From an uncultured Flavobacteriaceae bacterium (GTDB lineage Bacteria; Bacteroidota; Bacteroidia; Flavobacteriales; Weeksellaceae), in the NCBI GenBank assembly GCA_963519505.1, contig CAUQOP010000001.1, positions 1 to 39,380 on the forward strand: a stretch of 39,380 bases of DNA. The letters run 5' to 3'. The notes beneath the pieces were generated by a model. That model was given only the letters and a program-made list of their open reading frames with translations. It was not told where the DNA came from and made no database searches. This document shows, in pieces, positions 8,099 through 36,341 of this stretch. The stretch's first letter is position 1; each line of letters begins with the position of its first letter. Position numbers and translations under genes: made by a program.

Positions 8099-8848
8099 TT
8101 ATCCTTCTATTTTCTTTATAATTTCTTTAACTAACTGTTTATAATCTTCACTTGCTCTTGATAAAGGCGCAACCTGAAAAATAGTTTTTCCTTCTTTTTT
8201 AGCATTTTCTACATTTACATCTTGCCGAATATAGGTCTCCAAAAAATACTGTCCTGCTTGTTGTTTTGCTAAATCACTATATACTCTAAAATTTTTAGTG
8301 TTAGTAAGAACTTTATTGAAGAAAAAACCTAAAAATTGTAACTTCGGATTATAATTATCTATAATTCTTTTTACTGATGGTAATAATTCATTAATCCCTT
8401 CAATAGAATACTCCTCTGCCTCAATTGGTGAAAGTACATAATCTGAAGCACAAAGTGCAATTTCTCCCAAACCCACTCTGCCACTTAATGGACGAGGCGG
8501 ACAATCTATTATAATGTAATCCAAATTCATTTTACTAGATAATATATCTATCATATCTTTCAAGACTGTTCTTTTATAATCTGTCTCCTCTACCCCTCTA
8601 TCTCCTGCTAATATGAATAAACTTTCTCCTTTTTGTGTCAAACGAAAATTACCTGTCTTCTCAATAAAATTTTTAACCGTATAAGGAAAATCTTTTGGTA
8701 TCTTATATCCAATTGACAAATTCCTTTGTGAATCAAAATCTATAATCAAAACGCGCTTTTTCATTTCTGCAAACGACGCTCCTAAATGAATAGATGTTGT
8801 GGTTTTTCCTACACCTCCTTTTTCAGTAATGATAGATATTACCTTCAT
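8099..8848 (-). CDS. parA: ParA/Soj-family partition ATPase
   Basis: 249 aa. It has the deviant Walker A ITEKGGVGKTTTS at the N-terminus and DCPP in the Walker B region. Confidence 0.9.
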   Translation of the reverse strand: MKVISIITEKGGVGKTTTSIHLGASFAEMKKRVLIIDFDSQRNLSIGYKIPKDFPYTVKNFIEKTGNFRLTQKGESLFILAGDRGVEETDYKRTVLKDMIDILSSKMNLDYIIIDCPPRPLSGRVGLGEIALCASDYVLSPIEAEEYSIEGINELLPSVKRIIDNYNPKLQFLGFFFNKVLTNTKNFRVYSDLAKQQAGQYFLETYIRQDVNVENAKKEGKTIFQVAPLSRASEDYKQLVKEIIKKIEG

Positions 8849-18475: not shown

Positions 18476-20992
18476 CTATATTTTTTGTTTTTCCCAGTAG
18501 AGTTCATCATTTTTCAAGGTGACACTGACAGTATCTCCTTCATGAAACTCTCCTGCTACGATTTTTTTTGCTAAAGGTCTTCGTAATTTTCCTCGAATAA
18601 CACCTTTTAGTGGCCTTGCTCCATATTTTATGTCATAGCCTTCTTCTGAAAGATATTCTTTGGCTTCTTCCGAAATATTTAATGTAATATTTAAATTTTT
18701 AACCAAATCTAATAATTCTTTTTTGAGGTGTATTTCGAAAATTTTCAGAGCATTCTCTTTACTTATCGGTGCAAAAGGAATGATTTCTGTAAGTCTTCCC
18801 AAAAACTCTGGGCGAAAAAACCTTGTCATAATCTCCAAAAGATCGGCTGAAGCTGGAATTTTTCCATTAGCAAAAGAATTTACAATAAAATCCGAGCCTA
18901 TATTAGATGTAAAGAGAATGATAGCATTAGAGAAATCACCTTCTTTGCCAAGTCTGTCGTGCAGCTTACCTTCATCCATTATTTGAAGAAAAACATCAAA
19001 AACTGAAGCATGAGCCTTTTCTATTTCATCAAAAAGAACAATGGAATAAGGCTTTTGTCTAATTTTATTAACCAAAAGTCCGCCCTCTTCATAGCCTACA
19101 TAACCAGGAGGCGCTCCATAGAGTAATGCCGCGGAATGCTCTTCTTTAAACTCGGACATATCAAAGCGGATAATTGCATTTTCATCTTGGAAAAGAAATT
19201 CTGCCAAGGATTTTGCCAGTTCGGTTTTCCCTGTTCCTGTTGGCCCTAAAAAGAAAAATGAACCGATGGGTTGTCCAGCTTTACTCAGTCCAGAACGGGA
19301 CTCTAGAACCGCTCCAGAAATTGTAGCTATAGCGTGGTCTTGCCCTACCACTCGGCGGGAGAGAACCTGCTCTATTTCATTCAAACGCTGTTTTTCTTCT
19401 TCTTGTAGTTTTCCGATAGAAATATTTGTTTTTTGAGAAATCATCAAAGCTAAATCTCTATCAGTAATATCGCTTCGTTTTTCCAAAGCAACAGCCTCTG
19501 CCTGCTCTATTCGTTTTCTAGAAAAAGCAAAAATATTTTCGACATCAATAATTTGATTATCAAAAACTTCTGGTTCTTCTTCAGAACTTAATAAGTATTT
19601 AGTTTTTTCCACTAAATCCTTTAAAAGCCATAAAGCATGAGTTTTTAACTGTTCATCTGAATAATTTTTTGTGTTTTGTTCTAGATGTATGATCTGATTC
19701 AGAAAATGATTTTTTTCTTTCAGGAAGGACTCACCAGCAGTTTTTAGAGCAGACATTGTGTGGTCTACTAAATCTATTGCCGAAGCAGGAAGACTCTTTT
19801 CTTTCATGTACCGCTTAGACAGACGAATTGCCTCTCGAATACTTCTGTCTTCAATATTAATTTGATGGTGATTTTGATAACTTACCAATGCCTGTTTGAG
19901 CATTCTGAAATGAGTTTCATCATCAGCTTCTTCCATTTTGATAATTTCGAACATTCCTGATAGACCCTGTTCTTTTTCTATCTTTTTGGTATACTCTTCT
20001 ATCGTAGTGGCGGCAATCAGAGTGAGTCCTTTTGACAATTCACTCTTCAACAGATTGCTAATTCCCATATCTTGGTTACTGCCCAATAGTGAATGAATAT
20101 CATCAATAATCAAAACGCTTTTGGGATATAAACGAAGTTCATTGGCAATATTTTTCAGTCGATCTTCTATTTCGCCTTTGTAAGAAGCTCCAGCAATAAT
20201 AGCTCCTAAATCCAGTTCAAAAACCTCTAAACCACCTAGCAAATCAGGAATCTGATTAAAAACCAATTTTTGGACAAAACCCTCTATCAGTCTAGTCTTC
20301 CCAATGCCATGATCACCTATAATCAATACATTTTGTTTGTGATAGCGACAAAGTATCTCCGTAATGTGATGGAGTTCTGCATCTCTACCAATTAAGAAAT
20401 TATCTTCTTGATGAGTTAAATCATTTTTCTTATCCTGTTTTAATAAATCATTCTTTTTCTTAATCTCTTCTTTTTTATTGATACAATATTTTTGCAAAAA
20501 GCCTTTCTTTAAAGTAGATAAAGATTTTGGCGAAGAATTAGAAATGTTGTCAGATAATTCAAATTTTGGCTGATCTTTCAATAGTTCTTCTCTTGTGACA
20601 GGAAAGGTTTTCATTTGATCAAAACTAAATGCTGCCCCTGGTGAACTCAACGCTACCATTAGACAAAAAAGCGTAACTTCGTCCTCACTTAGCAATTCAC
20701 GGATAGCATCTGCTTCAGCAAAGATTTCATCTATAATTTCAGAAGGCTCACAACTGCGTAAATTTGGAGATTTTGGCGACTCTTCTATTCTAACTTCCGC
20801 CCATTCTTCCAAAAAAAACACATCGACTCCTAGTTTCTCTAAGTTTTTTAAAAGAGATAAATCCCTATTTAGTATGGCTTTAAGTAAATGCGCCCCAGTA
20901 TATTGCGCATTCATATTCTCTCTCCCTATTTTCTGAGCAACCTCTAATGCTTTCTGTACTTCAGAATTATATGATGATTTGAAAGTTTCCAT
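18476..20992 (-). CDS. tssH: ClpV/TssH AAA+ sheath-recycling ATPase
   Basis: 838 aa with two AAA modules. The Walker A motifs are GDHGIGKTRL and GPTGTGKTELAK. The Walker B motifs are VLIIDDIH and VLFDEIEKAH. It has a Clp-N-like N-terminus. Confidence 0.92.
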   Translation of the reverse strand: METFKSSYNSEVQKALEVAQKIGRENMNAQYTGAHLLKAILNRDLSLLKNLEKLGVDVFFLEEWAEVRIEESPKSPNLRSCEPSEIIDEIFAEADAIRELLSEDEVTLFCLMVALSSPGAAFSFDQMKTFPVTREELLKDQPKFELSDNISNSSPKSLSTLKKGFLQKYCINKKEEIKKKNDLLKQDKKNDLTHQEDNFLIGRDAELHHITEILCRYHKQNVLIIGDHGIGKTRLIEGFVQKLVFNQIPDLLGGLEVFELDLGAIIAGASYKGEIEDRLKNIANELRLYPKSVLIIDDIHSLLGSNQDMGISNLLKSELSKGLTLIAATTIEEYTKKIEKEQGLSGMFEIIKMEEADDETHFRMLKQALVSYQNHHQINIEDRSIREAIRLSKRYMKEKSLPASAIDLVDHTMSALKTAGESFLKEKNHFLNQIIHLEQNTKNYSDEQLKTHALWLLKDLVEKTKYLLSSEEEPEVFDNQIIDVENIFAFSRKRIEQAEAVALEKRSDITDRDLALMISQKTNISIGKLQEEEKQRLNEIEQVLSRRVVGQDHAIATISGAVLESRSGLSKAGQPIGSFFFLGPTGTGKTELAKSLAEFLFQDENAIIRFDMSEFKEEHSAALLYGAPPGYVGYEEGGLLVNKIRQKPYSIVLFDEIEKAHASVFDVFLQIMDEGKLHDRLGKEGDFSNAIILFTSNIGSDFIVNSFANGKIPASADLLEIMTRFFRPEFLGRLTEIIPFAPISKENALKIFEIHLKKELLDLVKNLNITLNISEEAKEYLSEEGYDIKYGARPLKGVIRGKLRRPLAKKIVAGEFHEGDTVSVTLKNDELYWEKQKI

Positions 20993-21026: not shown

Positions 21027-22085
21027 TTATTTTTTCATCCAAATTCCCCATTTTTTAGTTTTGTAATGGACATTGATATTTTGGATACAATTTTGTGAAT
21101 TCTTGTTCAAGCGAATAGCCGAGATTTTAATTTTATCCCCTGAAATGACTCTGCAAAATTCATCAAATGGTAAAATTTTATCATCATTGATGACTACAGG
21201 AATATCATAATTTCCACAAAGATAGTCCTTGAAATCTTCCTTTGTTTTAGACTGATTCGCGACCTGATTTAATAATAATTGAAACTGCTCATTGGAGATT
21301 TCTGGAGCTTTTTTAGGCTCAGCAAGTGTATCTTTTTTAGTATTTCCTCGTGGAGAAACAGGAATATTCTCAAGCATATCTACCAATGGATCTTTTTGTG
21401 GATTGCCTTTTGGAAGAGAAAAAGAAGCATGGGAACGCTCAAATTCATAAGATTTAAGGTCTATTTTTTGTTTAGCTTTTATGGTTTTAGGCGCTACATA
21501 AATAGTTTTTACTGCACGATGTTCTACATCTCCATTTACAATTAAGGTAACTTTTTTCTGTCCAGCTGATTTGAAATGATATGAAACAGACTGCCCTAAA
21601 GCATCAGTATCTATACTTTCACCAAAACTCCATTCCCAAGATTGTCCACCTTCTTTTTCTCCAAGAAAATCAACTTTCTGTCCAACCGTAACGACACTTG
21701 GGGCAATAATCCTAGGTAAATATCCTGTGTTTTGGCTGGTTGCTGTGATGTGAATTGATTTTTCATGAACACAGTGACCATTGATTTTCAAGCGAATAAT
21801 ATAATTTCCTGCTTTCTTATATTGGTGCAGGGTTCTCTGGCGATAATCAGGAGCTGAACCATCTCCAAAATCCCATTCCCAGCTCTTTGCATTGGGTGTA
21901 TTGTCATAAAATTCAACGACTTTATCTATTGACATATCCCCTGACACTAGAAATTTGGCACTTTCACAATCTACACGGCGAAAATACTGAACCAGTAAAA
22001 GTATAATACTAAGCAGCAGAACAATACCCAAACTCAAATAAATACGCCTATCTATCCGAAATAAAAAACCAAAATGCCTTAACAT
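21027..22085 (-). CDS. Membrane-anchored protein with two PKD domains
   Basis: 352 aa with an N-terminal TM helix (LSLGIVLLLSIILLLV). There are two PKD signatures, WEWDFGDGS and WEWSFGES. It lies 34 nt upstream of clpV on the same strand. Confidence 0.8.
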   Translation of the reverse strand: MLRHFGFLFRIDRRIYLSLGIVLLLSIILLLVQYFRRVDCESAKFLVSGDMSIDKVVEFYDNTPNAKSWEWDFGDGSAPDYRQRTLHQYKKAGNYIIRLKINGHCVHEKSIHITATSQNTGYLPRIIAPSVVTVGQKVDFLGEKEGGQSWEWSFGESIDTDALGQSVSYHFKSAGQKKVTLIVNGDVEHRAVKTIYVAPKTIKAKQKIDLKSYEFERSHASFSLPKGNPQKDPLVDMLENIPVSPRGNTKKDTLAEPKKAPEISNEQFQLLLNQVANQSKTKEDFKDYLCGNYDIPVVINDDKILPFDEFCRVISGDKIKISAIRLNKNSQNCIQNINVHYKTKKWGIWMKK

Positions 22086-22137
22086 ATATCATTTTTAACC
22101 TAACAAAAATAATGTTTTTTTGTAAATATAAAAACCA

Positions 22138-22322
22138 TTACTTTTTCTTTATGGTCTTTTCTACCCTGTAGAAACTAGTTTTGCTGATACCTGCTTGTTT
22201 ACAGGCTTTATCTATAGGAATATTTTTGTTTTCATAAAGATGAAAAGCAAAATAATATTTTTCCAAAGTTTCTTTCTTTACCCCTTTGGGTCTTCCGATG
22301 AGCTTCTTTCTTCTCCTTGCCT
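22138..22322 (-). pseudogene. Remnant of a second serine-recombinase gene (C-terminal HTH only)
   Basis: By eye it is about 88-90% nt identical to 26417..26600. It translates to ARRRKKLIGRPKGVKKETLEKYYFAFHLYENKNIPIDKACKQAGISKTSFYRVEKTIKKK*, which matches the last about 60 aa of ORF 26417..26992. Going upstream in this frame a stop codon (TAG) is reached before any ATG, and there is no catalytic domain. Confidence 0.8.
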
Positions 22323-22400
22323 CCTTTGATTCATTTCTTTTATATTCCTCTTTTTCGTCCGATTTTCTAAAACAACTTAAAATAAATTCGTCATAAATAA

Positions 22401-25148
22401 TTAGAATCCGTATTTTCTTTCTCTATTTTTAAAGGCTTCTTTACCTCCTTCTACAATATCTGCAATATGCTCTTTAATACCCATGCTTTTTAATAAATCT
22501 GTTTCGGTTTCAATTTTAGCAAATGTATTTTCTATTGCACCATTGATATAATCAAATTTATAAAGACTCGAAGTTTCTTTGTCATTTTGTCCCTTTTGAT
22601 TTGCAACAATAACATTTTCTGCATCGGCATTTACAACAATATTTGCATTGTGTGTAACCAATATAATTTGTCTTTCAATTTTCTTATTCCTTAGATAAGA
22701 GATAATATTTTCACTTACAGAACGATTGTCCAAGTTATCTTCTGGTTGGTCAATCAGAATTGGTGATTTTGATTTACTCAAGCCTATTATTAACATTAGT
22801 ATCACAAAACTTGCTTTCCCTGTGGACATCTCACCAAGTTTATCATTTTTGTAAGTGATTTCCCAATAGTCATAAAAATAATCATCCAGTATTTTTTTCA
22901 TAATTTCTCGTTGGTTATATCTCGTATTTACCACATATTTTCCACTTAAAACATCTTCAAATATATTTTTTACCTCACTTTCCAAATGTGAATATTCATA
23001 TTCCGAAATTCTTGTCTTTTTACTTTCTAAGATATCATAATTCAAATTTGAAGCACTTCTGCCATCAGTGAAATCCAAAATATTTTCACGGAATTTTTGG
23101 AAATTAAATTGTGCTATTCCCCTTATTTGTAAACCGTCTTTTTCAAGTTCTACTGTTCTATCTTTCAATAACTCTATAATGTTCATATACTCATCAAAAG
23201 ATTTTTTATATAATTGGAATAAATTGTCTTTTGTTTTGATTGCAAATTCTTTTTTCTCCGTGATACTTGTATTGAGAGTATTTATATCCTCCAAAAGCTT
23301 TTTGTCATTTGCAATAGATCCATTTAGTTTTTTTATTTTTTCTTGAATCTCTTCATTCTTTTGGTACGGCTTCATCTCATTTTCAATACTATTCTTCTGA
23401 GTGATGATTAGATTTAACTCCTCTTTAAAAATATTATTATTTACAAAAACCTTTTTCCCCTCACTATTCTCTTTAAGTTCTATTTCTTTAATCAAATTTT
23501 CAAGCTGATTTATTGAATCACTTAGAAAACTTAATTTAGTTTGATAATACTCTCTAAATCTATCTGTCTTAATATTTTGTAAAAAGGTTATTTTTTTAGT
23601 TTGTAAAATAACTAATTCATTTTTAAGTTCTTGCAAGAAAGTATTCGTTTGAGAAAAATCACTATTCAGTAAATCTTTTCTTTTTTGATTTTGCTGTTGT
23701 TGTTCTTGAATACTTTTGTATTGCTCAATATGCTCATCGGATAATCCTGCTTCTTTGTTTGACTTTTCAACTTCTTCAGAGTTTGTTTTAATACTAGTCT
23801 CTAAAACCTCTTTTTTTGGTTTTGTGTTTAATTCGGCTTCTAATTTTTGTATATCATCAAGAGTATCAAAGTAGTTATCTATCAGATCATCTCTTTTTTT
23901 GTCATATCCTCTTACTCTTTCAATAAAATTATTATACTTTTGTTTTGAATCAGTATCCTCACAAATAAGATTTCTAACTAATTTATTTAGAGATTCTCCT
24001 TTTCCACTTAACTCAGGTTCAGCAAGTTTTACCAATTCATTTTGTGGAATATACTTTATATTTGGAATTAGAGAATTATGCCCGTCTTCTCTATCAGATA
24101 TTTTTTGAGAAATACCAGCTTTCGTTGTAATTTCAAAATTAAAGCCTGAATCAATAGATTTTAGACCATATCTTTCTTCCCCATTATTTTTAAAAAGCAA
24201 TTTGTCTTTTGTATCTGCTAATAAGGTTTTTGCAATAGAATATAACAATATAGACTTTCCTGACGATTTTCCACCGATAATAACATTAAGGTTAGGGTTA
24301 AAATATATCTCTTCATTACTAAATTTATTATTAGGAGAAATAAATTTCACTTTGTCAATAATTTCCTTATCTTCTTTGAAGTCGGGTTTTTCGTCTTGCA
24401 TTCTTACTCTTTCTTCAGGTTCATAAATAATTTGTTTTAATCCTTCAAAAGTAGGATCTGCTTTTATCCAACAGTTTTCTTTTAAGGAATAATTCTTTAT
24501 ATCATGATTATCAGAGGCAATAATCATAGGGATATACTTTCCTATATTAGGAAAAACATTTTTTATATATCCTTCCTTATCAGTTACTTTCCCAAGTTCA
24601 TAAATATCAACTAAATCAACTATATCTTCTTTTTGTGCTATGGCGTGAGGTAAGGAATTTGTAATATTTTCAATGTTATTAGTTTTACTTCCTGCATGTA
24701 TGGTTGTTATTCCTCCTAATTCTTTTATTAATTTCATGGTGTCTATTAAATCACAATATACTTCATTGTGTTTTTTATTAGAACCTTCTATCTGTTTTAT
24801 ATTTGTAGTGTTTTTTAGCTGCCCCCATATATAAGAAATATTAGAAGTGCCTGAAAAAATACCTATGAAATGTATTGGATCTTTACCTCTTGCATCAGCT
24901 AAAAATTCTATTCCAGGTAAAACAGTTATTCCTTTATCTTTACCAAGTTGTTGCAAATTTTGGATTCTATCTATATCCATTATATGATGGTCTGTTATTG
25001 CAACAACAGATATTTCATTTTCAGCTAATATATTTATTATTTCTTGGTCTGTTACTCCTTTATTTTTATAATCATATGATGAAGGAGTATGAAAGTGTAA
25101 ATCCCATTTTCTCCATTCAGAGCCTCTGTTTACTTTGTTTGTATTCAT
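22401..25148 (-). CDS. PHP-domain phosphoesterase fused to SMC/ABC-like ATPase with long coiled coil (Ppl-like candidate defence protein)
   Basis: The N-terminal PHP motifs are WDLHFHTP, AITDHH, PGIEF, TTIHAG and IASDNHD. Walker A is IIGGKSSGKSILL. A K/E/Q-rich coiled-coil region of about 300 aa follows. Near the C-terminus are EMSTGKASF, the Walker B ILIDQPEDNLDNRS and LVTHNANIVV. The start is set at MNTNKV (25148), which avoids a 62-nt overlap with the upstream gene. Confidence 0.75.
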   Translation of the reverse strand: MNTNKVNRGSEWRKWDLHFHTPSSYDYKNKGVTDQEIINILAENEISVVAITDHHIMDIDRIQNLQQLGKDKGITVLPGIEFLADARGKDPIHFIGIFSGTSNISYIWGQLKNTTNIKQIEGSNKKHNEVYCDLIDTMKLIKELGGITTIHAGSKTNNIENITNSLPHAIAQKEDIVDLVDIYELGKVTDKEGYIKNVFPNIGKYIPMIIASDNHDIKNYSLKENCWIKADPTFEGLKQIIYEPEERVRMQDEKPDFKEDKEIIDKVKFISPNNKFSNEEIYFNPNLNVIIGGKSSGKSILLYSIAKTLLADTKDKLLFKNNGEERYGLKSIDSGFNFEITTKAGISQKISDREDGHNSLIPNIKYIPQNELVKLAEPELSGKGESLNKLVRNLICEDTDSKQKYNNFIERVRGYDKKRDDLIDNYFDTLDDIQKLEAELNTKPKKEVLETSIKTNSEEVEKSNKEAGLSDEHIEQYKSIQEQQQQNQKRKDLLNSDFSQTNTFLQELKNELVILQTKKITFLQNIKTDRFREYYQTKLSFLSDSINQLENLIKEIELKENSEGKKVFVNNNIFKEELNLIITQKNSIENEMKPYQKNEEIQEKIKKLNGSIANDKKLLEDINTLNTSITEKKEFAIKTKDNLFQLYKKSFDEYMNIIELLKDRTVELEKDGLQIRGIAQFNFQKFRENILDFTDGRSASNLNYDILESKKTRISEYEYSHLESEVKNIFEDVLSGKYVVNTRYNQREIMKKILDDYFYDYWEITYKNDKLGEMSTGKASFVILMLIIGLSKSKSPILIDQPEDNLDNRSVSENIISYLRNKKIERQIILVTHNANIVVNADAENVIVANQKGQNDKETSSLYKFDYINGAIENTFAKIETETDLLKSMGIKEHIADIVEGGKEAFKNRERKYGF

Positions 25149-25158
25149 AATATATTTT

Positions 25159-26352
25159 TTAATATAAAAATCCGAACAACCATAGAGGAATAGATTTTCC
25201 ATTAGGTTGAACAATATCATCTTTTACGATCCAAGAATTTTCTAATCCTTTAATTTGTGATGTTGTTTTGTTTTTTCCTCCTATTTCAAAGGTGTACTTA
25301 TCGTCTACTAAAAAATCAGCTTGTTTAGACTGGGATATTTTATGATTCACAACTATTTGATTATAGAAGAATATTTCCCGAACAGTTCCTATATTAGGAT
25401 TACCCTCATTTAAAGCAAATAGAAGGTTTGTGTTATTCAAGTATACTTTTTCAGGTTTTTGAATTGAAGCTATACTATAATTTTGAGGTTGTAACAAATA
25501 CAATAAACGAGATTCTTCCAAAAAGTATAGGTAGTTGTTTAATGAATTTCTATGAATATTTGTTTTTCGGGAAAGCTCAGATAAATTGGGGGAGAATGGA
25601 ACTTGCTGACTTACAATGTATAACAATTGTAAGATTTTTTTAGCTTGCCTAATATCAAATCCCTTAATCTCAGCCATATCTACTTCTACAATTAACCTTA
25701 CCAATTGTCTTAATTTCTGGTGATAAGTATGTATATTTTCCATAAAGAAAGGATAACAACCTACTTCTAAATATTCATTAAAGAACTCATATGGCTTAAA
25801 ATCAACAGAAAAATATTCATTAAAATCAAAATTGGGATTTAATATTTCTTGCAAAGAAATTTCAGAAATATGAACACCTTTAGATAAGGAAAGAAACTCC
25901 CTGAAAGAAAGCCCATGAAGTTCATAAATTACAGCTCTTCTACTTAAATCGCCTTCATTATGTGTGATATCAATAATTGATGAGCCTGTAAAAATTATTT
26001 TTAAATCATGATATCTATCGTATAGATTTTTAATTTCTTGAGACCAACTAGGGTATTTATGTACTTCATCCAATACCAAAACTTTTCCTCCCTGCATATA
26101 GAACTCCTTCCCTATTTCTAGTAAACTATGGTTAGAAAAGAAAATATCATCTAATGAAATATATAATTTTTGAGTTTTTGGCAAGTTTAATTGAGCTAAA
26201 TACTGAAGTAACATTGTTGTTTTTCCAGTCCCTCTCGCTCCTTTTATACCAATAAGATTATCATTCCAATCTATTTTATAATATAGACTCCTAAAAAAAT
26301 CCAATTTAGTTTTTAATAGATGTTGATTGGATATATCAAACAATTCTTCCAT
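25159..26352 (-). CDS. AAA+ ATPase of the AAA_14/DUF4143 type
   Basis: Walker A is GIKGARGTGKTTML and Walker B is VLVLDEVHKY. The C-terminal ADFLVDD..FEIGGK resembles the nuclease-like DUF4143 end. The likely start is MEELFD at 26352; the ORF track extends to 26412. Confidence 0.75.
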   Translation of the reverse strand: MEELFDISNQHLLKTKLDFFRSLYYKIDWNDNLIGIKGARGTGKTTMLLQYLAQLNLPKTQKLYISLDDIFFSNHSLLEIGKEFYMQGGKVLVLDEVHKYPSWSQEIKNLYDRYHDLKIIFTGSSIIDITHNEGDLSRRAVIYELHGLSFREFLSLSKGVHISEISLQEILNPNFDFNEYFSVDFKPYEFFNEYLEVGCYPFFMENIHTYHQKLRQLVRLIVEVDMAEIKGFDIRQAKKILQLLYIVSQQVPFSPNLSELSRKTNIHRNSLNNYLYFLEESRLLYLLQPQNYSIASIQKPEKVYLNNTNLLFALNEGNPNIGTVREIFFYNQIVVNHKISQSKQADFLVDDKYTFEIGGKNKTTSQIKGLENSWIVKDDIVQPNGKSIPLWLFGFLY

Positions 26353-26416
26353 TTTATAAATGCACAAATAAATATGCAATTTATAATTATTTTTGCATAT
26401 TTCAAAATGCAAAAGC

Positions 26417-26992
26417 TTACTTTTCTTTCTTCAAAGTCTTTTCTACCCTGTAGAAGCTGGTTTTGCTTATACCCGCTTGCTTGCAGGCTTTATCGATAGG
26501 AATGTTTTTGTTTTCATAAAGATGAAAGGCAAAATGATATTTTTCCAAAGTTTCTTTTTTTATTCCTTTGGGTCTTCCGATGAGTTTCTTTCTTCTCCTT
26601 GCTCCTTCGATTCCTGCTTTCGTTCTTTCACTGATGAGATTTCTTTCAAACTCAGCCACTGCTCCAAAAATCTGAATGATAAACTTCCCATTGGCAGAAG
26701 TAGTATCAAAAGCGGGTTCAGAGATACTTTTGAAGAAAACACCTTTTTGATTAAAAAACTCAATGAGCTCAATCATATTTTTTAAAGAGCGGAAAATTCT
26801 ATCGGTTTTATAAACAATAACCACATCTCCCTCGCGAAGGAAAGAGAGCATTTCATTGAGTCCTTTTCTGTCTTCTCGCACACCACTGGCAATATCAGTG
26901 TAAATTTTCTCGCACCCTTGCTGTTTTAATAGTTCTATTTGGGTTTCTAATTTCTGCTCAGCAGTAGAAACACGCGCATATCCGAAAATCAT
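26417..26992 (-). CDS. Serine recombinase (resolvase/invertase family)
   Basis: 191 aa. The N-terminal MIFGYARVSTAEQ carries the catalytic Ser context. The C-terminal HTH is IPIDKACKQAGISKTSFYRV. Confidence 0.9.
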   Translation of the reverse strand: MIFGYARVSTAEQKLETQIELLKQQGCEKIYTDIASGVREDRKGLNEMLSFLREGDVVIVYKTDRIFRSLKNMIELIEFFNQKGVFFKSISEPAFDTTSANGKFIIQIFGAVAEFERNLISERTKAGIEGARRRKKLIGRPKGIKKETLEKYHFAFHLYENKNIPIDKACKQAGISKTSFYRVEKTLKKEK

Positions 26993-27496
26993 AATTTAGA
27001 TATTTAATGTTTATTGTTATGGCTTTTTGTTTATTTATCTATAGGAATATTCTCCAATATATTTCTTACAAATAATGGTAAATATTTTTCATAAAAAAGA
27101 CACTTTTTAATTATTTAAATTGGAACAAATACAATATCCAAATTTATAAAATAATCAAAAAACAAGTTCCGAAGTTTTTTACTCCTTTTTTATCAAAAAA
27201 AAGCAAGATAGTCTTTGCCTAAAACTTGAAAAAGTTGTATATACAAAGACACATCTTGCACCTCTCATTTCGGTTAGCTTTCAGATATTTTATATTTTGG
27301 TAAAGGAATTTTATTATAGCAACATAAAACATTGATTTTCAATGTCTGTTTTTTGTAAAATAGATTTTGGACTCTAAAAATATGCTTATAGTACAGAAGA
27401 AATGAAGTTCTAAAAAAGCTTGTTTTTTTAGTATAAATAATGTTTTTATTTGGTATTTATTGATAACCAGCTATTTAGCAAAACAGCTCTGTCACA

Positions 27497-27574
27497 TTTT
27501 TTACAGGTTGCTCTCCTAACCCTGCAGTATATTTTACAGGTAGATGATATACCTTGAATTATTTTTTACAGGTT
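27497..27574 (+). repeat. Three direct copies of TTTTACAGGT
   Basis: The copies are TTTTTTACAGGTT at 27497-27509, ATTTTACAGGTA at 27531-27542 and ATTTTTTACAGGTT at 27561-27574, with about 30-34 bp spacing. They lie in a 737-nt ORF-free gap upstream of the recombinase. Confidence 0.4.
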
Positions 27575-27658
27575 GGTAGGGTAATTTAAAATAATGAAGT
27601 AGACAAAAAACTAGTACCCTAACTTTAGAATTTCATTGGTAATTTTATATGAAAGACA

Positions 27659-27688
27659 CTTTGATAGTATCATTTGATACTATCAAAG
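27659..27688. repeat. Perfect 30-bp palindrome
   Basis: CTTTGATAGTATCA tt TGATACTATCAAAG has 14-bp arms and a 2-nt centre. It lies 41 nt beyond the stop of the DUF234-type ATPase gene. It could be a terminator or a dimeric protein binding site. Confidence 0.6.
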
Positions 27689-27729
27689 TCATGTTTTTAA
27701 TCACTAAGTAAAAAACTCAGTATTAGTTA

Positions 27730-29049
27730 TTACATATCCTCCAAGCTCCACGCATAAAAATCTTTTTTATAGGAATTAAATTGCGGATTTTGGATTAAAA
27801 ATTCGGCAGCTTTTTGTCTTAGTTTTTCTATATTTATATTGTTCTTTTGTCGTTTTATTTCCGCGAAATCTATGCTTTTTTCTATTTCATTTACTGCTAT
27901 AAAATCTATTTCAGTTTCTCCTTTTCTATCCCAATAGTTGCCGATGCTCGTATAGGCTTGAGAAATTTGAGCATTTTCTCTAAAATACTTTTCTAACATA
28001 TGTCCGCTGAATGAAGAAAAATCCCTTTCTATGATCTTTTGCAGCTGTTCATATGCCCCTATTTCTATCATTGATGAATATTTATAGATGAACCTAAACC
28101 AAAACATGATAAAATTATCTTCTATCTGATATTTTACATTTTTAGTTGAGCTTTTTGTAAAAATAGGCTGTTGTTTTTTTATCAGATTAAAATCTCTCTC
28201 CATTTTGGTTAAATAGCCTCCAATTTCCTTTTTTAACAAGTTTTCTATCTCAGCTCTTGTATTTTTCCCTTCAGAAATAGCCGTTAAAATGCTAAAATAA
28301 GTTCCATATTCTTTTCCAAACTCATCTATCAAAAGATTTTTCCCTTCAGAAATGAAAATAGAATTCTCATCTATCATTCCTTCTATCATTTTTTCTTTGC
28401 TTGTCCATCCATTATCCATAAAAAGCTGAACATATTTTGCCACACCTCCTGTAAAACTGTACAAAGCCAATAAATCATCAGGGGTATAGCTGGGACTATA
28501 ATCTGATAAAATTTCCTTTAAAGTATTGGTTTTAAATGCTTGTAGCTTTATGAAATGATTCGCTCTTCCGAATAAAGGTTCTTTATAATTTTCAAAAATC
28601 TTGTACATCAATGAAATTACAGAGCCTGAAACTATTAGATTCAGCTTAGCCTTATCCTTATGCAAATCCCAAATTCTTTGCATATCGCTATAAACCGATG
28701 GATTTACTGTGAAAAACTCTTGAAATTCATCAATTATCAAGGTAATGTTTTGTTCATATGATAGCTGAACAATATATTCAAAAAGAACAGAAAACGAATT
28801 TACTTCTCCCAAAATAGGTGGATTTAATTTCTCTTTTAATTCTTGTAGAAAATCCTGGCATAAGATAACCTCTGATTTTTTTGCTACAAAAAAGTACAGA
28901 AACTTTGTATTTTCATAGGATTTTAACAAAAGTTGAGTTTTTCCAATTCTTCTTCTCCCAGTTACCACACTAAATTGAGCATTCTTTTTTGATTGCTCTT
29001 TAATTTCGAGTAGTTTTTTGATTTCTTTTTCTCTGTTGTAAAATTTCAT
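27730..29049 (-). CDS. AAA+ ATPase of the Arch_ATPase/DUF234 type with PD-(D/E)xK-like C-terminus
   Basis: Walker A is TGRRRIGKTQLL and Walker B is TLIIDEFQEF. The C-terminal GETEIDFIAV...IDFAEIKRQ looks like a D..E.K nuclease motif. The likely start is MKFYNREKE at 29049; the ORF track extends to 29088. Confidence 0.75.
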   Translation of the reverse strand: MKFYNREKEIKKLLEIKEQSKKNAQFSVVTGRRRIGKTQLLLKSYENTKFLYFFVAKKSEVILCQDFLQELKEKLNPPILGEVNSFSVLFEYIVQLSYEQNITLIIDEFQEFFTVNPSVYSDMQRIWDLHKDKAKLNLIVSGSVISLMYKIFENYKEPLFGRANHFIKLQAFKTNTLKEILSDYSPSYTPDDLLALYSFTGGVAKYVQLFMDNGWTSKEKMIEGMIDENSIFISEGKNLLIDEFGKEYGTYFSILTAISEGKNTRAEIENLLKKEIGGYLTKMERDFNLIKKQQPIFTKSSTKNVKYQIEDNFIMFWFRFIYKYSSMIEIGAYEQLQKIIERDFSSFSGHMLEKYFRENAQISQAYTSIGNYWDRKGETEIDFIAVNEIEKSIDFAEIKRQKNNINIEKLRQKAAEFLIQNPQFNSYKKDFYAWSLEDM

Positions 29050-29324
29050 ACCACAAACATAAGAAATGTGCATTTCCGAAACAAACATTTCGAAAAAAAT
29101 ATTTAATTTATAAAAATCTATGAATCAAAGTTGAAGGTTTTATTGATGTATATTTTGAGATTTATAATTATTTATAGTTCCAAAAACTATCTTAAAAGAA
29201 AACAAATAAATAAAACGGGAAAAAGAACTATTTTTAGAAAAGATTATTTGGAGGAATTATAGTTTCAAAAAAGGGTCGGTTTTTAGGAAAAATTTAACGG
29301 TTTAATTATTTCATATTAAAATGG

Positions 29325-29353
29325 ATTTGGTTTAAAAAAAAGTTTTACTTTTG
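29325..29353 (+). promoter_or_regulatory. Candidate Bacteroidota promoter for the tssK operon
   Basis: TTTG at 29325-29328 and TACTTTTG (TAnnTTTG) at 29346-29353, 26 nt upstream of the tssK ATG. Confidence 0.4.
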
Positions 29354-29379
29354 TAAGGATTTAATTAAAAGTTGAGTTT

Positions 29380-30540
29380 ATGACAGAAACATTACATTAT
29401 TTTCCTGTTCATTGGATAGATGGAATGAAGATTAACAAAGGACATTTTTTATCTGTCCAAGATAGTATGAGTGATATGCTCCGTGATGGAATTGGCATCC
29501 ATTTATCAATGCAAAATTATGGTCTGCTTCCTGTTGAAGACTCACTTAAACTGAGTTTAAGTATTGATAATCATAAACTTCTTCGTGTACGAGTAGAAGA
29601 ATGTCAAGCAGTAACTCCAAACGGCTCCCGAATATCCATTGGAAAAGGTGTTGCTGAACAATTGCAATTATCCATTCCTTATCCAGAAGCAGCATATGAG
29701 TTAAAAGACGATGAAAATATAACACTTTTAGCATGTATTTCTGTAAACCCATTTAAACGAATTCCTTTTGGGGAGCCAGATCCAGATGAGAATCCGCCAA
29801 GATATCCATTTACACAACCTGAATATAATCTACATTTAATTCCCGAAAATGAGCTAAAAAACACCGTAGGGTTTGGGCTTAGCTACCTTACAATTGGCAA
29901 GGTTTTAGTAAATGCTGGAGAGTCGCGTATAGATGAAAATTATATTCCTCCTTGCGTGAATGTTTCTTCACATTTAAAATTAAAGGATTTATATTCATCT
30001 ATAGAACATTTTTATGGTCAAATGGAGCTTTATTCAGTGCAGATAGAGCAGAAAATTCGGGTAAAAAATCAAAATAATTCCTTAGCAGTAATGATTGGGC
30101 TTTTAGCAGAAAAGACACTTAATTATTTAGGAATGGAGATCAATCGTTTCCGTTGGTTGTCACCACATCGTCCACCTGTTGAAATGTTCCTTTCTGTAGT
30201 GAGTTTAGCAAGAGTTTTGAAAAATTTCATTGATGCTAAATCTGGTGCAGGTAAGGAGGAACTACTCAATTATTTTTCGGAATGGTGTAATCTGACACAA
30301 GGAAATTTTGAGCAAATATTTACTGAGGTTATTAATTCTGATTACGATCACAATCAGATGGATATTGTCATCAAAAAAATTGTAGTTTTTATGAAAACAT
30401 TAGAGGAACTGTTTTCAATTCTCAACCGCTTGGATTATATCGGCAAGAAGCGAGACGGTAGTATTTTTGTTTCTGAAAACACAGACGAACGAGAGGCTGT
30501 TGTCCATGCAAAAAGAAGTAGAACTTTTTTGGCTGATTAG
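29380..30540 (+). CDS. tssK: T6SS baseplate subunit TssK
   Basis: 386 aa. The N-terminal PVHWIDGMKINKGHFLSVQD parallels the canonical TssK start (W.EGM.L.PQHFQQ). Confidence 0.85.
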   Translation: MTETLHYFPVHWIDGMKINKGHFLSVQDSMSDMLRDGIGIHLSMQNYGLLPVEDSLKLSLSIDNHKLLRVRVEECQAVTPNGSRISIGKGVAEQLQLSIPYPEAAYELKDDENITLLACISVNPFKRIPFGEPDPDENPPRYPFTQPEYNLHLIPENELKNTVGFGLSYLTIGKVLVNAGESRIDENYIPPCVNVSSHLKLKDLYSSIEHFYGQMELYSVQIEQKIRVKNQNNSLAVMIGLLAEKTLNYLGMEINRFRWLSPHRPPVEMFLSVVSLARVLKNFIDAKSGAGKEELLNYFSEWCNLTQGNFEQIFTEVINSDYDHNQMDIVIKKIVVFMKTLEELFSILNRLDYIGKKRDGSIFVSENTDEREAVVHAKRSRTFLAD

Positions 30541-33031: not shown

Positions 33032-33418
33032 ATGTCATTTAAAGCAAAATTAAAAGTTGCAGGAAAAGAACGCAACATCTTGTCAGTAGATTTCGGAATG
33101 CTGCAAGAAACAGATCCTACAGGAAGACCCTCATCAGTAACTAGAGGCGGAAAAATCCACATCGTTGTAGAAGGTACAGGTGAAACTGACCTTTTTGAAT
33201 GGATGACCAACTCCTTTGAACGAAAAGATGGAAGCATTGTTTTTTATAAGCGAGACAGTGATGCTACCTTGAAAGAATTAAAATTCAAAGAAGCCTATAT
33301 TGTAAAATATAGAGAAGATTTTGATTCCACTGGTGATACTCCATTAAAAGAAGTTTTCACACTGAGTGCTAGAGAAATAGAAATGGGAAATGCCATTCAC
33401 ACTAATGAATGGGTGTAA
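33032..33418 (+). CDS. tssD: T6SS tube protein Hcp/TssD, copy 1
   Basis: 128 aa, the Bacteroidota TssD size. MSFKAKLKVAGKE.N.LSV...QETDPTGRPS.VTRGGKI..VVEGTGE is typical. Confidence 0.85.
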   Translation: MSFKAKLKVAGKERNILSVDFGMLQETDPTGRPSSVTRGGKIHIVVEGTGETDLFEWMTNSFERKDGSIVFYKRDSDATLKELKFKEAYIVKYREDFDSTGDTPLKEVFTLSAREIEMGNAIHTNEWV

Positions 33419-33452
33419 GTTCAATTAACAAAAAACATTAAAAATTAGTTTT

Positions 33453-33839
33453 ATGTCATTTAAAGCAAAATTAAAAGTTGCAGGAAAAGAATATAATGTA
33501 CTGAGTGTAAGCTATGGATTGTTCCAAGAAACTGATCCTACAGGGCGTCCTTCAACAGTTACAAGAGGAGGAAAAATAGATATTACTGTAGAAGGCACAG
33601 GTGAAACTGACCTTTTTGAATGGATGACCAACTCCTTTGAACGAAAAGACGGATGTGTGGTTTTTGTCAAGAGAGACAGCGATGCTACTCTGAAGGAACT
33701 AAAATTCACAGAAGGATATCTTGTAAAACACAAAGAAAACTTTGATTCTACGGGAAAAAATCCGCTTACGGAAAGTTTTACAATATCTGCAAGAAAGATA
33801 GAGATGGGAACTGGCGCTTACGAAAACGAATGGGTATAA
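33453..33839 (+). CDS. tssD: T6SS tube protein Hcp/TssD, copy 2
   Basis: 128 aa, by eye about 75% identical to copy 1. The first 11 codons are identical. Confidence 0.85.
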   Translation: MSFKAKLKVAGKEYNVLSVSYGLFQETDPTGRPSTVTRGGKIDITVEGTGETDLFEWMTNSFERKDGCVVFVKRDSDATLKELKFTEGYLVKHKENFDSTGKNPLTESFTISARKIEMGTGAYENEWV

Positions 33840-33882
33840 GCTGGAAGATCAGCCCATTTACAAAAACAAAATAATAAAAAAT

Positions 33883-33937
33883 GGACAATAAAAAACTAAT
33901 GCTTAATTATGTTTTTTGTTGTTCGTTTTTCTTTTTT
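33883..33937 (+). terminator. Possible weak rho-independent terminator/attenuator after hcp copy 2
   Basis: GGACAATAAAAAAC (33883-33896) can pair with GTTTTTTGTTGTTC (33911-33924), including G-U pairs. It is followed by GTTTTTCTTTTTT. The stem is AU-rich, so this is uncertain. Confidence 0.3.
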
Positions 33938-34019
33938 AAGAACCTAAAATATCAGTAGATTGAAGGGTTAAAAAAGTAAAAGATTAACATAAATCATTAA
34001 CTATTAAATATTAAGAAAA

Positions 34020-34406
34020 ATGTCATTTTTATCAAAATTAGAATTGGACGGAGGTAGTTATAATATCCTAGAATGTTCATATGAATTTACCCAGTCAATA
34101 GACAGTATGGGAAAACCTCAGGGAATGCCTAAGGGCGGCGAAATTAGAATAAGAATAGAAAGCATGGGCAATCCAGACCTGCTCAACTGGATGCTGGATC
34201 ACAGCCAGACCAAAGACGGAAAAATTATTTTCTTTAGAAGAGATGCGATGAGCAAACTGCAGGAACTGAAATTTGAAAAAGCCTATTGTATCAATTTCAA
34301 GGAGCATTTTAATGCTAATGATACCCAGCCTTTACAAATTGAAATGGTGCTGATTGCCAAAACATTAGATATTAATGGTGCTGCTCATCAAAAAAATTGG
34401 AGGTAG
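34020..34406 (+). CDS. tssD: T6SS tube protein Hcp/TssD, divergent copy 3
   Basis: 128 aa with the same architecture (MSF..KL...G..YN.L...Y...Q..D..G.P......GG.I...E) but only distant identity to copies 1 and 2. Confidence 0.75.
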   Translation: MSFLSKLELDGGSYNILECSYEFTQSIDSMGKPQGMPKGGEIRIRIESMGNPDLLNWMLDHSQTKDGKIIFFRRDAMSKLQELKFEKAYCINFKEHFNANDTQPLQIEMVLIAKTLDINGAAHQKNWR

Positions 34407-34481: not shown

Positions 34482-36341
34482 ATGAATATCAATAAAATCC
34501 GCTCGTTTGGGGAATGGCTTAGTGACAAAGAAAATCCTATGGTCTATTGCCTGCTGAGCCTAGATGGTGAGCCCTTTTTGTCCCGAAACAGCTATGAAGT
34601 GATTCTAGAGCAGAAAACCAATGCACATGATACATTCAGCATTATTGTTCCTGATGATGCGCTGGATACTTATGAGGGCTTTGTGATGGAAAATTCCAAG
34701 AAACTTTTAGGGAAGAAAATCAGCTTGAGTTACTGGCAATATGGTTCTGAGAACCAAGTGTTTTCAGGAATTGTTACAGGACTGAAGAACCGAAAAGAGA
34801 GCGGCTACGGAAAGCTTGTGATTACAGGTCACTCGCCGAGTATTCTGCTGGAAAACGGCAGAGCAGACCGCAGTTTTGAGCAATTATCTTTATCGCAGAT
34901 TGTCAAAGAAATAGGGGTGAATTATCCTCAGGAAGGAAAAATCCATGCTGAAGAACAGGAACTCAATGTGAGAAGAGTTCTCCCTTATACGGTTCAGTCA
35001 CAGGAGAGTGATTTTGGTTTTATCCAAAGACTGGCAACGCGCTATGGTGAGTATTTTTACTATAATGGTAAGGAACTCATCTTTGGAAACAAAGCAGAGC
35101 CTGTTTTGGAACTTTCAGAGGGCAGAGAACTGATAGAGCTAGAGTTTGAATTAGGTCTAAGAGCTCAAGGATTCAGCGGTCTTGCCTATGATGCAGAAAA
35201 GGGTGAAAGTATCCAGCATAATGCTCAGGAAGTTCAGACAGAATGGAAAGAAAACGCCCTGCAGGCAGTGGCTGTACAGGCTTCCAAACAGCTCTTTGGG
35301 AATGTGCCAAAGAGTGTATTCAGTGGAAGTGAAAAATCTCAGGAGTTAGAAGAAATGCTTTTAAAGGAGAAAGAAAACCGTGAGAGCTTGATTTGGGTAA
35401 GAGGTAGAAGCAGAGATTCCAGGCTGAAAAATGGCAGCAGAGCGAAATTGATGGACATCAACGGACGGGCGATGGAAACTTATAGAATTGTAGAAATCAG
35501 ACATTACTACAATGGTGATGAATACTACAATGAGTTTGTAGGAGTGTCTGATGTGCTGCACCCACCATATCAGGATAGTGGAGCCTTTCCAAAGTCACAT
35601 GAACAAATGGGCAGAGTGGTAGAAAATGCTGACCCACTGGGACTGGGCAGAGTAAGGGTACAGATGGTGTGGCAGGAGGCAGGAAGTGAAAAGACCCCTT
35701 GGATAAGACTTTTGCAGCCACACAGTGGAAGTGGAAAGGGATTTTATTTTGTTCCAGAAATTGGCGAAGAAGTATTGGTGGGCTTTCAGGGAGGAAATGC
35801 CGAAAAACCGTATGTCATCGGAACACAGTACAACGGCAAGGAAAAGTCTGGCTATGCTGATAAAGAGAACAGCATCAAAGCAGTGCATACAAGGAGTGGG
35901 ACGAAAATTATACTCAATGATTCGGAGGGAAGCATTTTAATAGAAGACCCCAGCGGAAATACCTATCATATGGACGGACAGGGAAATATCAAAGTCTCTG
36001 CACCGAAAAACATCAGCTTTACAGCTGGACAGAATATCAACATCAGTGCTGGGCAGAATATTACCACAACTGCTGGAATGAACATCAGCACTTCAGCGGG
36101 AATGAATTACACCCAGATAGTTGGCGTGAATTTCGTAAGCACAGTGGCTGGAAATGTAAATCATTTTATCAGTGGAACTTTGACTGAGCTTATCGAAGGA
36201 GATGTCCATAATGAAGTAATGAAAGGCAAAACAACAGTGAATAATGATGGCGGAATAGAATATTTTTCCGAAACGACCATCAGCAGAAGTGCAGAAAAAG
36301 AAATCCAAAATAACAGCGGTGAAAAATCTAAATTGTTTTAG
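34482..36341 (+). CDS. vgrG: VgrG/TssI spike protein
   Basis: 619 aa. The gp5 OB-fold hallmark is GRVVENADPLGLGRVRVQMVWQ...TPWIRLLQPHSGSGKGFYFVPEIGEEVLVGFQGGNAEKPYVIG. A beta-helical repeat region follows (SAGQNITTTAGMNISTSAGMN). Confidence 0.92.
   Translation: MNINKIRSFGEWLSDKENPMVYCLLSLDGEPFLSRNSYEVILEQKTNAHDTFSIIVPDDALDTYEGFVMENSKKLLGKKISLSYWQYGSENQVFSGIVTGLKNRKESGYGKLVITGHSPSILLENGRADRSFEQLSLSQIVKEIGVNYPQEGKIHAEEQELNVRRVLPYTVQSQESDFGFIQRLATRYGEYFYYNGKELIFGNKAEPVLELSEGRELIELEFELGLRAQGFSGLAYDAEKGESIQHNAQEVQTEWKENALQAVAVQASKQLFGNVPKSVFSGSEKSQELEEMLLKEKENRESLIWVRGRSRDSRLKNGSRAKLMDINGRAMETYRIVEIRHYYNGDEYYNEFVGVSDVLHPPYQDSGAFPKSHEQMGRVVENADPLGLGRVRVQMVWQEAGSEKTPWIRLLQPHSGSGKGFYFVPEIGEEVLVGFQGGNAEKPYVIGTQYNGKEKSGYADKENSIKAVHTRSGTKIILNDSEGSILIEDPSGNTYHMDGQGNIKVSAPKNISFTAGQNINISAGQNITTTAGMNISTSAGMNYTQIVGVNFVSTVAGNVNHFISGTLTELIEGDVHNEVMKGKTTVNNDGGIEYFSETTISRSAEKEIQNNSGEKSKLF

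Follow-up and report, generated by a model that had tools for sequence, protein, structure and literature searches.

A recombinase-anchored region of exchangeable, probably defensive genes on a type VI secretion plasmid of an uncultured Weeksellaceae bacterium

Why does a compact set of genes that match no secretion family lie in the midst of a type VI secretion system (T6SS), and what might these genes do there? The question is raised by a stretch of 39,380 nt from an uncultured Flavobacteriaceae bacterium (contig CAUQOP010000001.1; hereafter the window), in which the region studied, positions 22086-29379 between the PKD-clpV genes and tssK, contains sizeable open reading frames (ORFs) on the minus strand only. 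As stated in a preliminary description of this DNA, there are five coding elements, all on the minus strand, in the order DUF234-type ATPase, small serine recombinase, DUF4143-type ATPase, ATPase with a PHP domain and recombinase remnant, and none of them matches a T6SS family in Pfam, PADLOC or NCBIfam (Table 1). That description had also proposed that they form a defence island against phages or other mobile genetic elements. Our comparison with relative contigs and stretches (labelled L followed by a number) suggests that positions 22138-29284 are probably the part of a circular T6SS plasmid (~39.3 kb) in which the defence genes vary, anchored by a recombinase core and by a conserved element, LE, with gene slots that are exchanged.

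The main evidence for a defensive role of the window cargo is that experimentally established systems replace the window genes at the same position in sister contigs, which were found by lookup of the exact TssK protein. These contigs encode an identical TssK yet differ in cargo at the island position, and at least five configurations are bordered by T6SS genes on both sides, namely the window type (shared by L001, L003, L006, L007 and L089-L092), L002, L005, L066 and L088. A type II restriction-modification set with a cytosine methylase takes the place of the DUF234 gene in L002, L009 and L010; L066 carries Gabija; and L088 carries a type I Thoeris system (ThsA-Macro and two ThsB-TIR) together with MNT/HEPN and two full recombinase genes in tandem. 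L005 encodes MNT/HEPN and a PDC-M29A-like ATPase, lacks the cassette of the DUF4143 and PHP-domain (TrlF-family) ATPases, and its recombinase abuts PKD with no cargo between. Partial loci were recovered on six contigs (L004, L008, L057, L100, L119, L126), and L008, L004 and L100 add a Tmn-like protein, a type II restriction enzyme with two Dam-type methylases, an AriA-like ATPase and a YoeB-type toxin-antitoxin pair. In the alternative cargo as a whole PADLOC recognized GajA/GajB, ThsA/ThsB, QatA-D, Drt3a/b, MTase_II/REase_II, Tmn, AriA-like and SoFic proteins. The same locus is occupied by different defence systems in close relatives. The comparison supports the proposed defence island, with Gabija, Thoeris, restriction-modification and MNT/HEPN shown in sister plasmids as allelic replacements of the window ATPases.

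The exact recombinase protein is also encoded on plasmids carrying an SprB adhesin and on contigs of 220-257 kb with housekeeping genes, and among its neighbours there are QatABCD, DRT type 3, Gabija, SoFic, PemK and zeta toxin. Because sister plasmids and other recombinase loci hold other defence cargo, we read the region as a multi-slot defence hotspot anchored on the recombinase. T6SS and SprB plasmids share Rep-ParA and LE-recombinase modules and differ between them, so that the recombinase region would be backbone with variable slots. Rather than one 7-kb insert, the region thus appears to be a multi-slot variable part of the plasmid backbone in which the recombinase is constant, and seen from the plasmid family the T6SS operons would be cargo as much as the island is; in L004 the left flank is that of the T6SS and the right flank that of an SprB-type plasmid. 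An empty LE-recombinase junction was found in none of 27 metagenome stretches, among which L100 and L058 hold further toxin-antitoxin cargo. Near distant homologues of the recombinase (65-86% identity; Chryseobacterium, Flagellimonas and others) tblastn returned almost none of the same cargo families, and our claims are therefore confined to this lineage. On three contigs of 58-245 kb (L065, L068, L069) the same recombinase protein lies among genes for tRNA synthetase, cytochrome oxidase and lactate dehydrogenase, with MNT/HEPN upstream and SoFic and an inverted DUF234 gene downstream; these may be true chromosomal copies or scaffolding joins.

Aligned with one another, the variants show breakpoints that are sharp and common to them. 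All are alike on the tssK side up to ~29172 and diverge directly inward of LE, whose inner end is abutted by five cargo types and whose outer end (..GGGTCGGTTTTT|) is precise beside three outer flanks (tssK, the SprB-adhesin plasmid and L058). LE occurs in 27 further metagenome stretches, with 86-100% conservation on plasmids and on large contigs; it could act as a promoter, as a res site or as an arm for recombination. In a local comparison of LE with the rest of the island, only short AT-rich matches of at most 14 nt were obtained. The position of LE also moves the end of the region, which had been placed at 29379, to ~29284, the limit of the sequence common to unrelated replicons; the final ~95 nt ahead of tssK belong to the T6SS side. 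Two direct repeats, TATAGTTCCAAAAA and TATAGTTTCAAAAA, lie ~80 nt apart in LE, and in L104 and L113 an insert of ~1 kb separates LE from the DUF234 gene. A hairpin ~40 nt past the DUF234 stop codon accompanies this gene in other contexts as well.

Beyond the first slot the variants become homologous again at one of two places, namely the recombinase start codon or a leader of 388 nt. The leader is kept upstream of the recombinase despite differing cargo farther upstream (L013, L066, L088) and is missing where MNT/HEPN abuts the recombinase gene. The leader contains a promoter-like site at 27342-27313 and a strong terminator-like hairpin at about 27260-27195 (fold z-score -2.5), and it matches no Rfam family. 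The promoter-like site (27185-27342 region, minus strand) agrees with the consensus at 11 of 12 positions and has an extended TG, and a long hairpin with a U-run 50-120 nt past it predicts a possible transcript of ~110 nt; leader fragments are conserved in the Capnocytophaga loci L019 and L028. In L118 a 3.4-kb insert (3146-6570) with an inverted DUF4143-like gene separates the leader from the recombinase ATG. At the other end of the recombinase gene ~64 nt after the stop codon are conserved, and the downstream cargo starts immediately past the second of two palindromes, P1 and P2. The constant core consists of the recombinase gene and these ~64 nt, with LE on the far side and cargo slots between and beside them; in the window the DUF234 gene fills the LE-recombinase slot, and the DUF4143-TrlF cassette the slot downstream of the recombinase, where it is bracketed by 195-nt repeats.

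That offence and defence share one replicon, as had been suggested, is supported by the closure of the circle. The ends of the window overlap by exactly 55 nt, and since tandem DUF2931 paralogues sit at these ends the join was checked independently: vgrG, the Tle1-like gene, two DUF2931 genes, TssB and TssC run across it in contigs from other samples (L078-L083, L002, L008), and contigs with these join-spanning genes cluster at 35-41 kb. Almost all genes of the plasmid encode T6SS components, and beside them lie genes for a RepB-like protein and ParA. This backbone block and the recombinase recur in the closed 37-kb Riemerella anatipestifer plasmid pRCAD0416RA-1 at 74% and 86% amino acid identity, the recombinase being 86% identical. 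In Capnocytophaga sp. oral taxon 864 a closed plasmid of 28 kb (NZ_CP027233.1) has ParA, a Rep gene and a recombinase (81% identical) besides a complete T6SS, and no defence genes. From the overlap, the spanned join, the Rep/ParA block and the closed relatives we conclude that the window is, by its sequence, a complete circular plasmid of ~39.3 kb (about 39,325 bp) with a complete T6SS, its replication itself being predicted. Megablast of window positions 1-22100 against the PLSDB plasmids gave no match, so that protein-level searches were needed to find relatives. The nearest genomes are metagenome-assembled genomes of uncultured Flavobacteriaceae, Bergeyella and Riemerella, and the host is an uncultured member of the Weeksellaceae, Bergeyella/Riemerella-like and probably from the human mouth. 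In a limited literature search we found no paper on T6SS plasmids in these genera.

What the window cargo itself might do is suggested by its domains. All three ATPases match PADLOC or NCBIfam models related to defence (PDC-S27, PDC-S01, TrlF). The DUF234 ATPase (452 aa; Walker A GRRRIGKT, Walker B LIIDEF) matches model PDLC04985 (5.5e-51) over residues 14-447 and its Pfam domains above their cutoffs, which places it in PDC-S27; no solved structural relative of it was found. For the DUF4143 ATPase, whose ORF is readable back to 26412, the start at Met21 was chosen after the 397-aa gene calls in sister contigs; the protein has Walker A GARGTGKT and Walker B VLVLDEV, matches PDLC04789 (1.1e-27) and reaches 30.1 bits for DUF4143 (cutoff 28.1), in line with PDC-S01. 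DUF234 and DUF4143 belong to the PD-(D/E)XK nuclease superfamily (PMC3424549, PMC12988326). Together with the PHP domain of the third protein, this is consistent with the notion of three NTPases, each with a predicted nuclease or phosphoesterase module, beside a recombinase. Each ATPase might sense foreign or damaged DNA in a nucleotide-dependent manner and pass the signal to its nuclease or phosphoesterase domain; the outcome might be either destruction of incoming phage or plasmid DNA or an aborted infection.

The third ATPase (915 aa from Met25, ORF readable back to 25220), whose start overlaps the DUF4143 stop by 12 nt, had been described as PHP-SMC-like. It combines a PHP domain with HxH and an ABC ATPase as Ppl does, yet by its profile matches it is a member of the TrlF family and not Ppl proper: it scores 584.1 bits against NF045780 (cutoff 350), with residues 32-938 covering the profile over 1-944 of 944, as a full-length member. 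The HxH (WDLHFHTP), Walker A (GGKSSGKS), Walker B (ILIDQPED) and H-loop motifs are intact, and these residues are invariant in 26 homologues; the family comprises 1187 clusters at 50% identity (E < 1e-30). A literature search on TrlF returned spectroscopy papers only. TrlF relatives stand alone in a CTnDOT-like conjugative element of Capnocytophaga and next to HEPN_AbiV, and as they occur without DUF4143, TrlF is best taken as a single-gene module and DUF4143 as an independent neighbour. An obligate two-gene system of DUF4143 and TrlF was considered and rejected, with TrlF homologues at 80% and 45% identity lacking DUF4143.

At the locus the TrlF alleles are mosaics of domains, next to a DUF4143 protein with 99-100% identity. 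The PHP domain of the window protein is 84-100% identical to that of the Capnocytophaga conjugative-element copy and 12-58% to that of the L001 allele, although L001 is a sister plasmid with ~96% identity outside TrlF and a DUF4143 protein 100% identical to that of the window. The pattern in the coiled-coil part of TrlF differs from that of the PHP domain (window 22401-25148; L001 2820-5828; L073 8001-10751). In the sister plasmids L067 and L070 (11844-14510) the TrlF gene is broken up into three ORFs (84, 257 and 560 aa) and is apparently a pseudogene, with DUF4143 intact.

A number of points weigh against reading the region as an exchanged set of defence genes. Judged by their family matches, the three ATPases are defence candidates, and none is an experimentally validated system. 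One representative each of PDC-S01 and PDC-S27 did not protect E. coli B from T7, T5 or T4 (bioRxiv 10.1101/2024.09.26.614923). With the Ppl equivalog model NF042955 the TrlF protein stays far below the cutoff (127 bits, cutoff 1000, residues 33-338 only), and its PADLOC match to Ppl (4e-35) is limited to the N-terminal part, with the best stretch at residues 33-356. Its structure model is of low confidence (predicted local distance difference test, pLDDT, 57.5), and the weak Foldseek matches of this model to MukB, JetC and Rad50 heads, of the structural maintenance of chromosomes (SMC) type, and to PHP domains were for this reason used as consistency only. Genes for resolvases, toxin-antitoxin pairs and ATPases are common in plasmid maintenance as well. 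As many assemblies break at the multi-copy recombinase, variants with a single T6SS flank, such as L004 and L008, could be assembly chimeras. For the recombination route, end products are the only evidence. Finally, the compositional signal of the island is weak. The contrast of 25-30% G+C in the island to 45-55% in parts of vgrG and the effector and immunity genes, as previously given, was overstated: the island is indeed lower, with 28.3% versus 33.5% in the rest of the plasmid, and no other 7.3-kb stretch of the circle has less G+C, but the difference amounts to just 5 points. Genes of the backbone and the T6SS reach the same level (ParA, TssF and the 180-aa ORF 28-31%, the Rep-like gene about equal), VgrG has 42.6% over the whole gene and 44% in its richest 1-kb window, and the tetranucleotide distance of the island from the plasmid mean lies in the top 9% of windows and is not extreme.

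If the slots are exchanged, the recombinase and its surroundings should tell how. The protein has 191 aa and is of the resolvase/invertase type; like other small serine recombinases of ~190 aa it has an N-terminal catalytic domain with the YARVSTxxQ serine motif (here GYARVSTAEQ, with the predicted catalytic serine) and a C-terminal helix-turn-helix (HTH), and among solved structures it is closest to Gin invertase (2e-33) and gamma-delta resolvase (2e-29). It is the constant anchor of the locus, and the identical protein is indexed in 1146 blocks of our collection, in many contexts. We compared 31 full copies of the gene, a sample biased towards identical proteins by the route of collection, and found 22 nucleotide alleles; 64 of the 76 variable codons differ by synonymous changes only and 12 change the amino acid. 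At the codon level the protein shows strong purifying selection, in plasmid and chromosomal copies alike. The four-gamete test is failed by 961 of 1770 informative site pairs, with at least 27 recombination events (Rm), and the gene is thus a mosaic at the single-nucleotide level.

The remnant comprises the HTH part of the recombinase gene, with a 1-nt insertion near its 5' end, and forms a direct repeat with positions 26417-26613 (~90% identity, 4282 nt apart), so that two copies bracket the DUF4143-TrlF cassette. L088, with a second complete recombinase next to PKD at the position of the remnant, shows its unreduced state. In L005, L050 and L060 the place of the remnant is taken by the 3' end of a full recombinase gene adjoining PKD, and the single gene in these contigs is either ancestral or the product of recombination between repeats. 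At the chromosomal locus L076 the DUF4143-TrlF cassette has recombinase-derived sequence and P1/P2 on both sides. The junction of the TrlF 3' flank with recombinase nt 380 is identical in L066, and because L066 keeps it with different other cargo it represents one inherited event; a recurrent crossover site at nt 380 was accordingly rejected. Taking the repeats, L088, L076, the mosaicism and L004 together, the recombinase gene and its fragments would behave as portable homology arms. Cargo might thus move by recombination among co-resident plasmids and the chromosome, with LE, the leader and the recombinase gene or its remnants as portable arms, and turnover would most likely use the conserved flanks (LE as well as the recombinase gene, whose 3' end is duplicated) for this purpose. 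The primary job of the enzyme would be site-specific recombination, such as the resolution of plasmid multimers.

Among the alternatives, the one closest to this explanation differs in cargo movement only and holds that the recombinase itself handles the cassettes in an integron-like manner by capturing, excising or swapping them at defined sites, for which P1/P2 and LE are candidates. We regard this as rather unlikely, and equally so the more general proposition that recombinase, P1/P2 and LE form an active capture-and-exchange platform for anti-phage cassettes on the plasmids and chromosome of oral Flavobacteriales. The common junctions are precise (the outer end of LE in three contexts, after P2, and at the start codon), and P1 and P2, which form TTGCA-N10-TGCAA with centres 33 nt apart, recall res subsites in their geometry, P2 being degenerate in the window copy. 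The L076 cassette with remnant and P1/P2 on both sides and the strong purifying selection on the protein would likewise be expected of a cassette-handling enzyme, and mobilisation by the recombinase has been postulated (PMC13552941). P1/P2 and LE are candidates for the cognate site of the recombinase; neither a second P2 copy nor an inverted pair was found at the locus. However, P2-like sites occur once per locus and are missing at other cassette borders. The remnant junction at nt 380 is a single inherited event, mosaicism down to single nucleotides throughout the gene points to homologous exchange, and neither excised circles nor alternative junctions were observed. In addition, the central 6 nt of P2 (28-bp palindrome) occur either way round, TTTATT or AATAAA, among near-identical loci (window, L011-L013, L063-L072), a flip-flop typical of hairpin or cruciform loop inversion, which fits better than a crossover at the central TA. 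An attC-like array was rejected, as the P2 palindrome or half-site is not repeated at other cassette borders and is not enriched in the window.

Homologous exchange of defence cargo also has to be weighed against another view, in which the region is an ordinary maintenance and stability region that combines multimer resolution with replication, partition or addiction ATPases and has no anti-phage function. Closed plasmids do have a resolvase beside backbones of the ParA/Rep type, toxin-antitoxin modules (PemK, MNT/HEPN, Fic, zeta) often lie nearby, and the PDC-S01 and PDC-S27 representatives were negative in the one heterologous test. Yet Gabija, Thoeris, Qat, DRT3 and restriction-modification systems, none of which serves maintenance, occupy the same slots; the cargo is dispensable, with L005 lacking DUF4143-TrlF and the Capnocytophaga T6SS plasmid lacking such genes; and relatives of TrlF and DUF4143 occur in defence-like contexts on chromosomes and conjugative elements. 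We therefore consider a pure maintenance region improbable.

Insertion of the whole region between the T6SS operons as one discrete 7-kb mobile element (a transposon or integrative mobilisable element) is very improbable. The precise outer end of LE in several contexts and the lowest G+C content on the plasmid would agree with it, but neither a transposase nor terminal inverted repeats nor a target duplication were found in the region, as would be expected of Tn3-family or other transposons, its parts vary independently, and the recombinase/LE module behaves as backbone because it is also present on plasmids carrying other cargo. No better founded is the idea that the recombinase is a DNA invertase and makes the expression of adjacent defence or T6SS genes phase-variable: Gin invertase is its closest solved relative, it weakly matches the Mpi master invertase family, and the DUF234 gene lies inverted on the other side in L065, L068 and L069, but no segment of the region is flanked by a pair of inverted repeats and all contigs with the T6SS site are collinear with the window. 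That the five genes are conserved T6SS accessory components, as their shared orientation with PKD-clpV and their presence in many sister contigs might suggest, appears refuted and can hardly be entertained, given their replacement by unrelated genes in contigs with an identical TssK, their absence from the Capnocytophaga T6SS plasmid and the lack of T6SS family matches.

Small serine recombinases as markers of defence loci and elements that combine T6SS genes with defence are already known. Andersen et al. (PLoS Biol 2026, PMC13552941) found that small serine recombinases mark anti-phage loci (RADS) across phyla, a link that holds in Bacteroidota (0.877 known systems per contig) and in human metagenomes; the mechanism was left open, with mobilisation or inversion suggested. 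Our locus resembles RADS by family type, with a resolvase/invertase-type recombinase linked to diverse anti-phage systems and toxin-antitoxin modules; it differs in that one identical recombinase protein is traced through at least 10 cargo sets and that breakpoints (LE, start codon, after P2), remnant repeats and a location on a T6SS plasmid are defined. Offensive T6SS genes and anti-phage genes also share one element in GMT islands (bioRxiv 10.1101/2023.03.28.534373) and Pantoea effector hotspots (10.64898/2026.08.01.741415), in which T6SS weapons and defence lie on shared mobile elements; those are chromosomal and hold effectors only, whereas here a whole T6SS and a hotspot are found on a ~39-kb plasmid without GMT genes. 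What is added here is thus the whole T6SS on a small plasmid, the identical recombinase protein across many cargo sets, the breakpoints and the remnant repeats.

In modules of the gamma-delta, Tn3, Sin and beta recombinases, recombination at or near the resolvase gene reassorts flanking modules. The window recombinase shares protein family, size and plasmid location with these Tn3-family and plasmid res modules, but there is neither a canonical res site upstream of it nor a transposase, another gene abuts its start codon in several contexts, and the candidate sites lie downstream (P1/P2) or kilobases off (LE). With integrons the locus has in common a recombinase beside an array of exchangeable, mostly promoter-less cassettes; it differs by a recombinase of the serine and not the tyrosine type, by cassettes in both orientations and by the lack of repeated attC-like sites, its palindrome occurring once per locus. 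Of the candidate families, TrlF shares with Ppl, a PHP-ATPase described as a defence system of one gene (Gao et al. 2020; Xu et al. Mol Cell 2026, as cited in PMC13223576), the N-terminal PHP phosphoesterase domain fused to an ABC-type ATPase and the occurrence as a single-gene module in defence contexts, but it aligns with Ppl over the N-terminal ~300 residues only and forms a separate family. The DUF234 and DUF4143 proteins, like PDC-S27 and PDC-S01, are AAA-type ATPases with a PD-(D/E)XK-superfamily domain, single genes among defence systems (PMC12988326), in PADLOC classes that are candidates only.

With the defence-island reading supported by comparison, the locus would give good genomic-context support to three little-studied candidate families, TrlF, PDC-S01 and PDC-S27. 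Small plasmids of human-associated Flavobacteriales unite a whole T6SS with a changing set of immune genes, so that offence and defence can spread together. Moreover, the plasmid family is a natural series with an identical recombinase protein and nucleotide-level breakpoints, by which exchange through homologous arms and enzyme-catalysed exchange become testable against each other. Should the capture-and-exchange platform prove true, it would be a serine-recombinase counterpart of the integron and would provide a mechanism for the marking of defence loci by recombinases.

Table 1. Features of the variable region, its flanks and the plasmid (window positions)
Feature	Coordinates	Strand	Remarks
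DUF234-type ATPase	27730-29088	-	Pfam ATPase_2 3e-20, DUF234 2e-14; PADLOC PDC-S27 5.5e-51
Small serine recombinase	26417-26992	-	Resolvase PF00239 4e-43, HTH_7 PF02796 4e-07
DUF4143-type ATPase (397 aa)	25159-26352	-	AAA_14 3e-29, DUF4143 5e-07; PADLOC PDC-S01 1e-27
TrlF-family PHP + ABC ATPase	22401-25148	-	NCBIfam NF045780, 584 bits
Recombinase remnant, 195 nt	22138-22332	-	copy of recombinase gene nt 380-576
LE element, 113 nt	29172-29284		conserved, non-coding; tssK side of variable region
DUF234-linked hairpin	27658-27689	-	14-bp perfect stem, terminator-like
Recombinase leader, 388 nt	26993-27380	-	conserved, non-coding
Palindrome P1	26393-26412		after recombinase stop codon
Palindrome P2	26360-26379		after recombinase stop codon
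ClpV	18476-20992	-	flanking gene
PKD	21027-22085	-	flanking gene
TssK	29380-30540	+	flanking gene
Plasmid backbone block	5941-8848	-	RepB-like 361-aa protein, 180-aa and 144-aa ORFs, ParA; between T6SS operons
RepB-like 361-aa protein	5941-7026		weak match to annotated RepB initiator
ParA	8099-8848		Pfam
Effector/immunity/TssD regions	38130-39296 and 8-1168; 13574-15541 and 36344-38173; 33032-34406

Searches for non-coding RNAs gave no further features: an Rfam scan of 21900-29500 matched no family, and no tRNA or tmRNA was found in the window. Outside the variable region, VgrG (34482-36341) has 42.6% G+C and 41.5% at third codon positions, versus ~32% in the rest of the plasmid, and G+C is also raised in the DUF4280 gene (41.9%) and the DUF2931 genes (39-40%). 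The tandem DUF2931 paralogues behind the Tle1-like effector have 84.6% amino acid identity, and a second, divergent effector of 655 aa (Tle1-like, 23% identity to the first) precedes a DUF2931-like protein of 364 aa upstream of clpV. The plasmid carries three TssD copies, and its effector and immunity regions vary among the sister plasmids.

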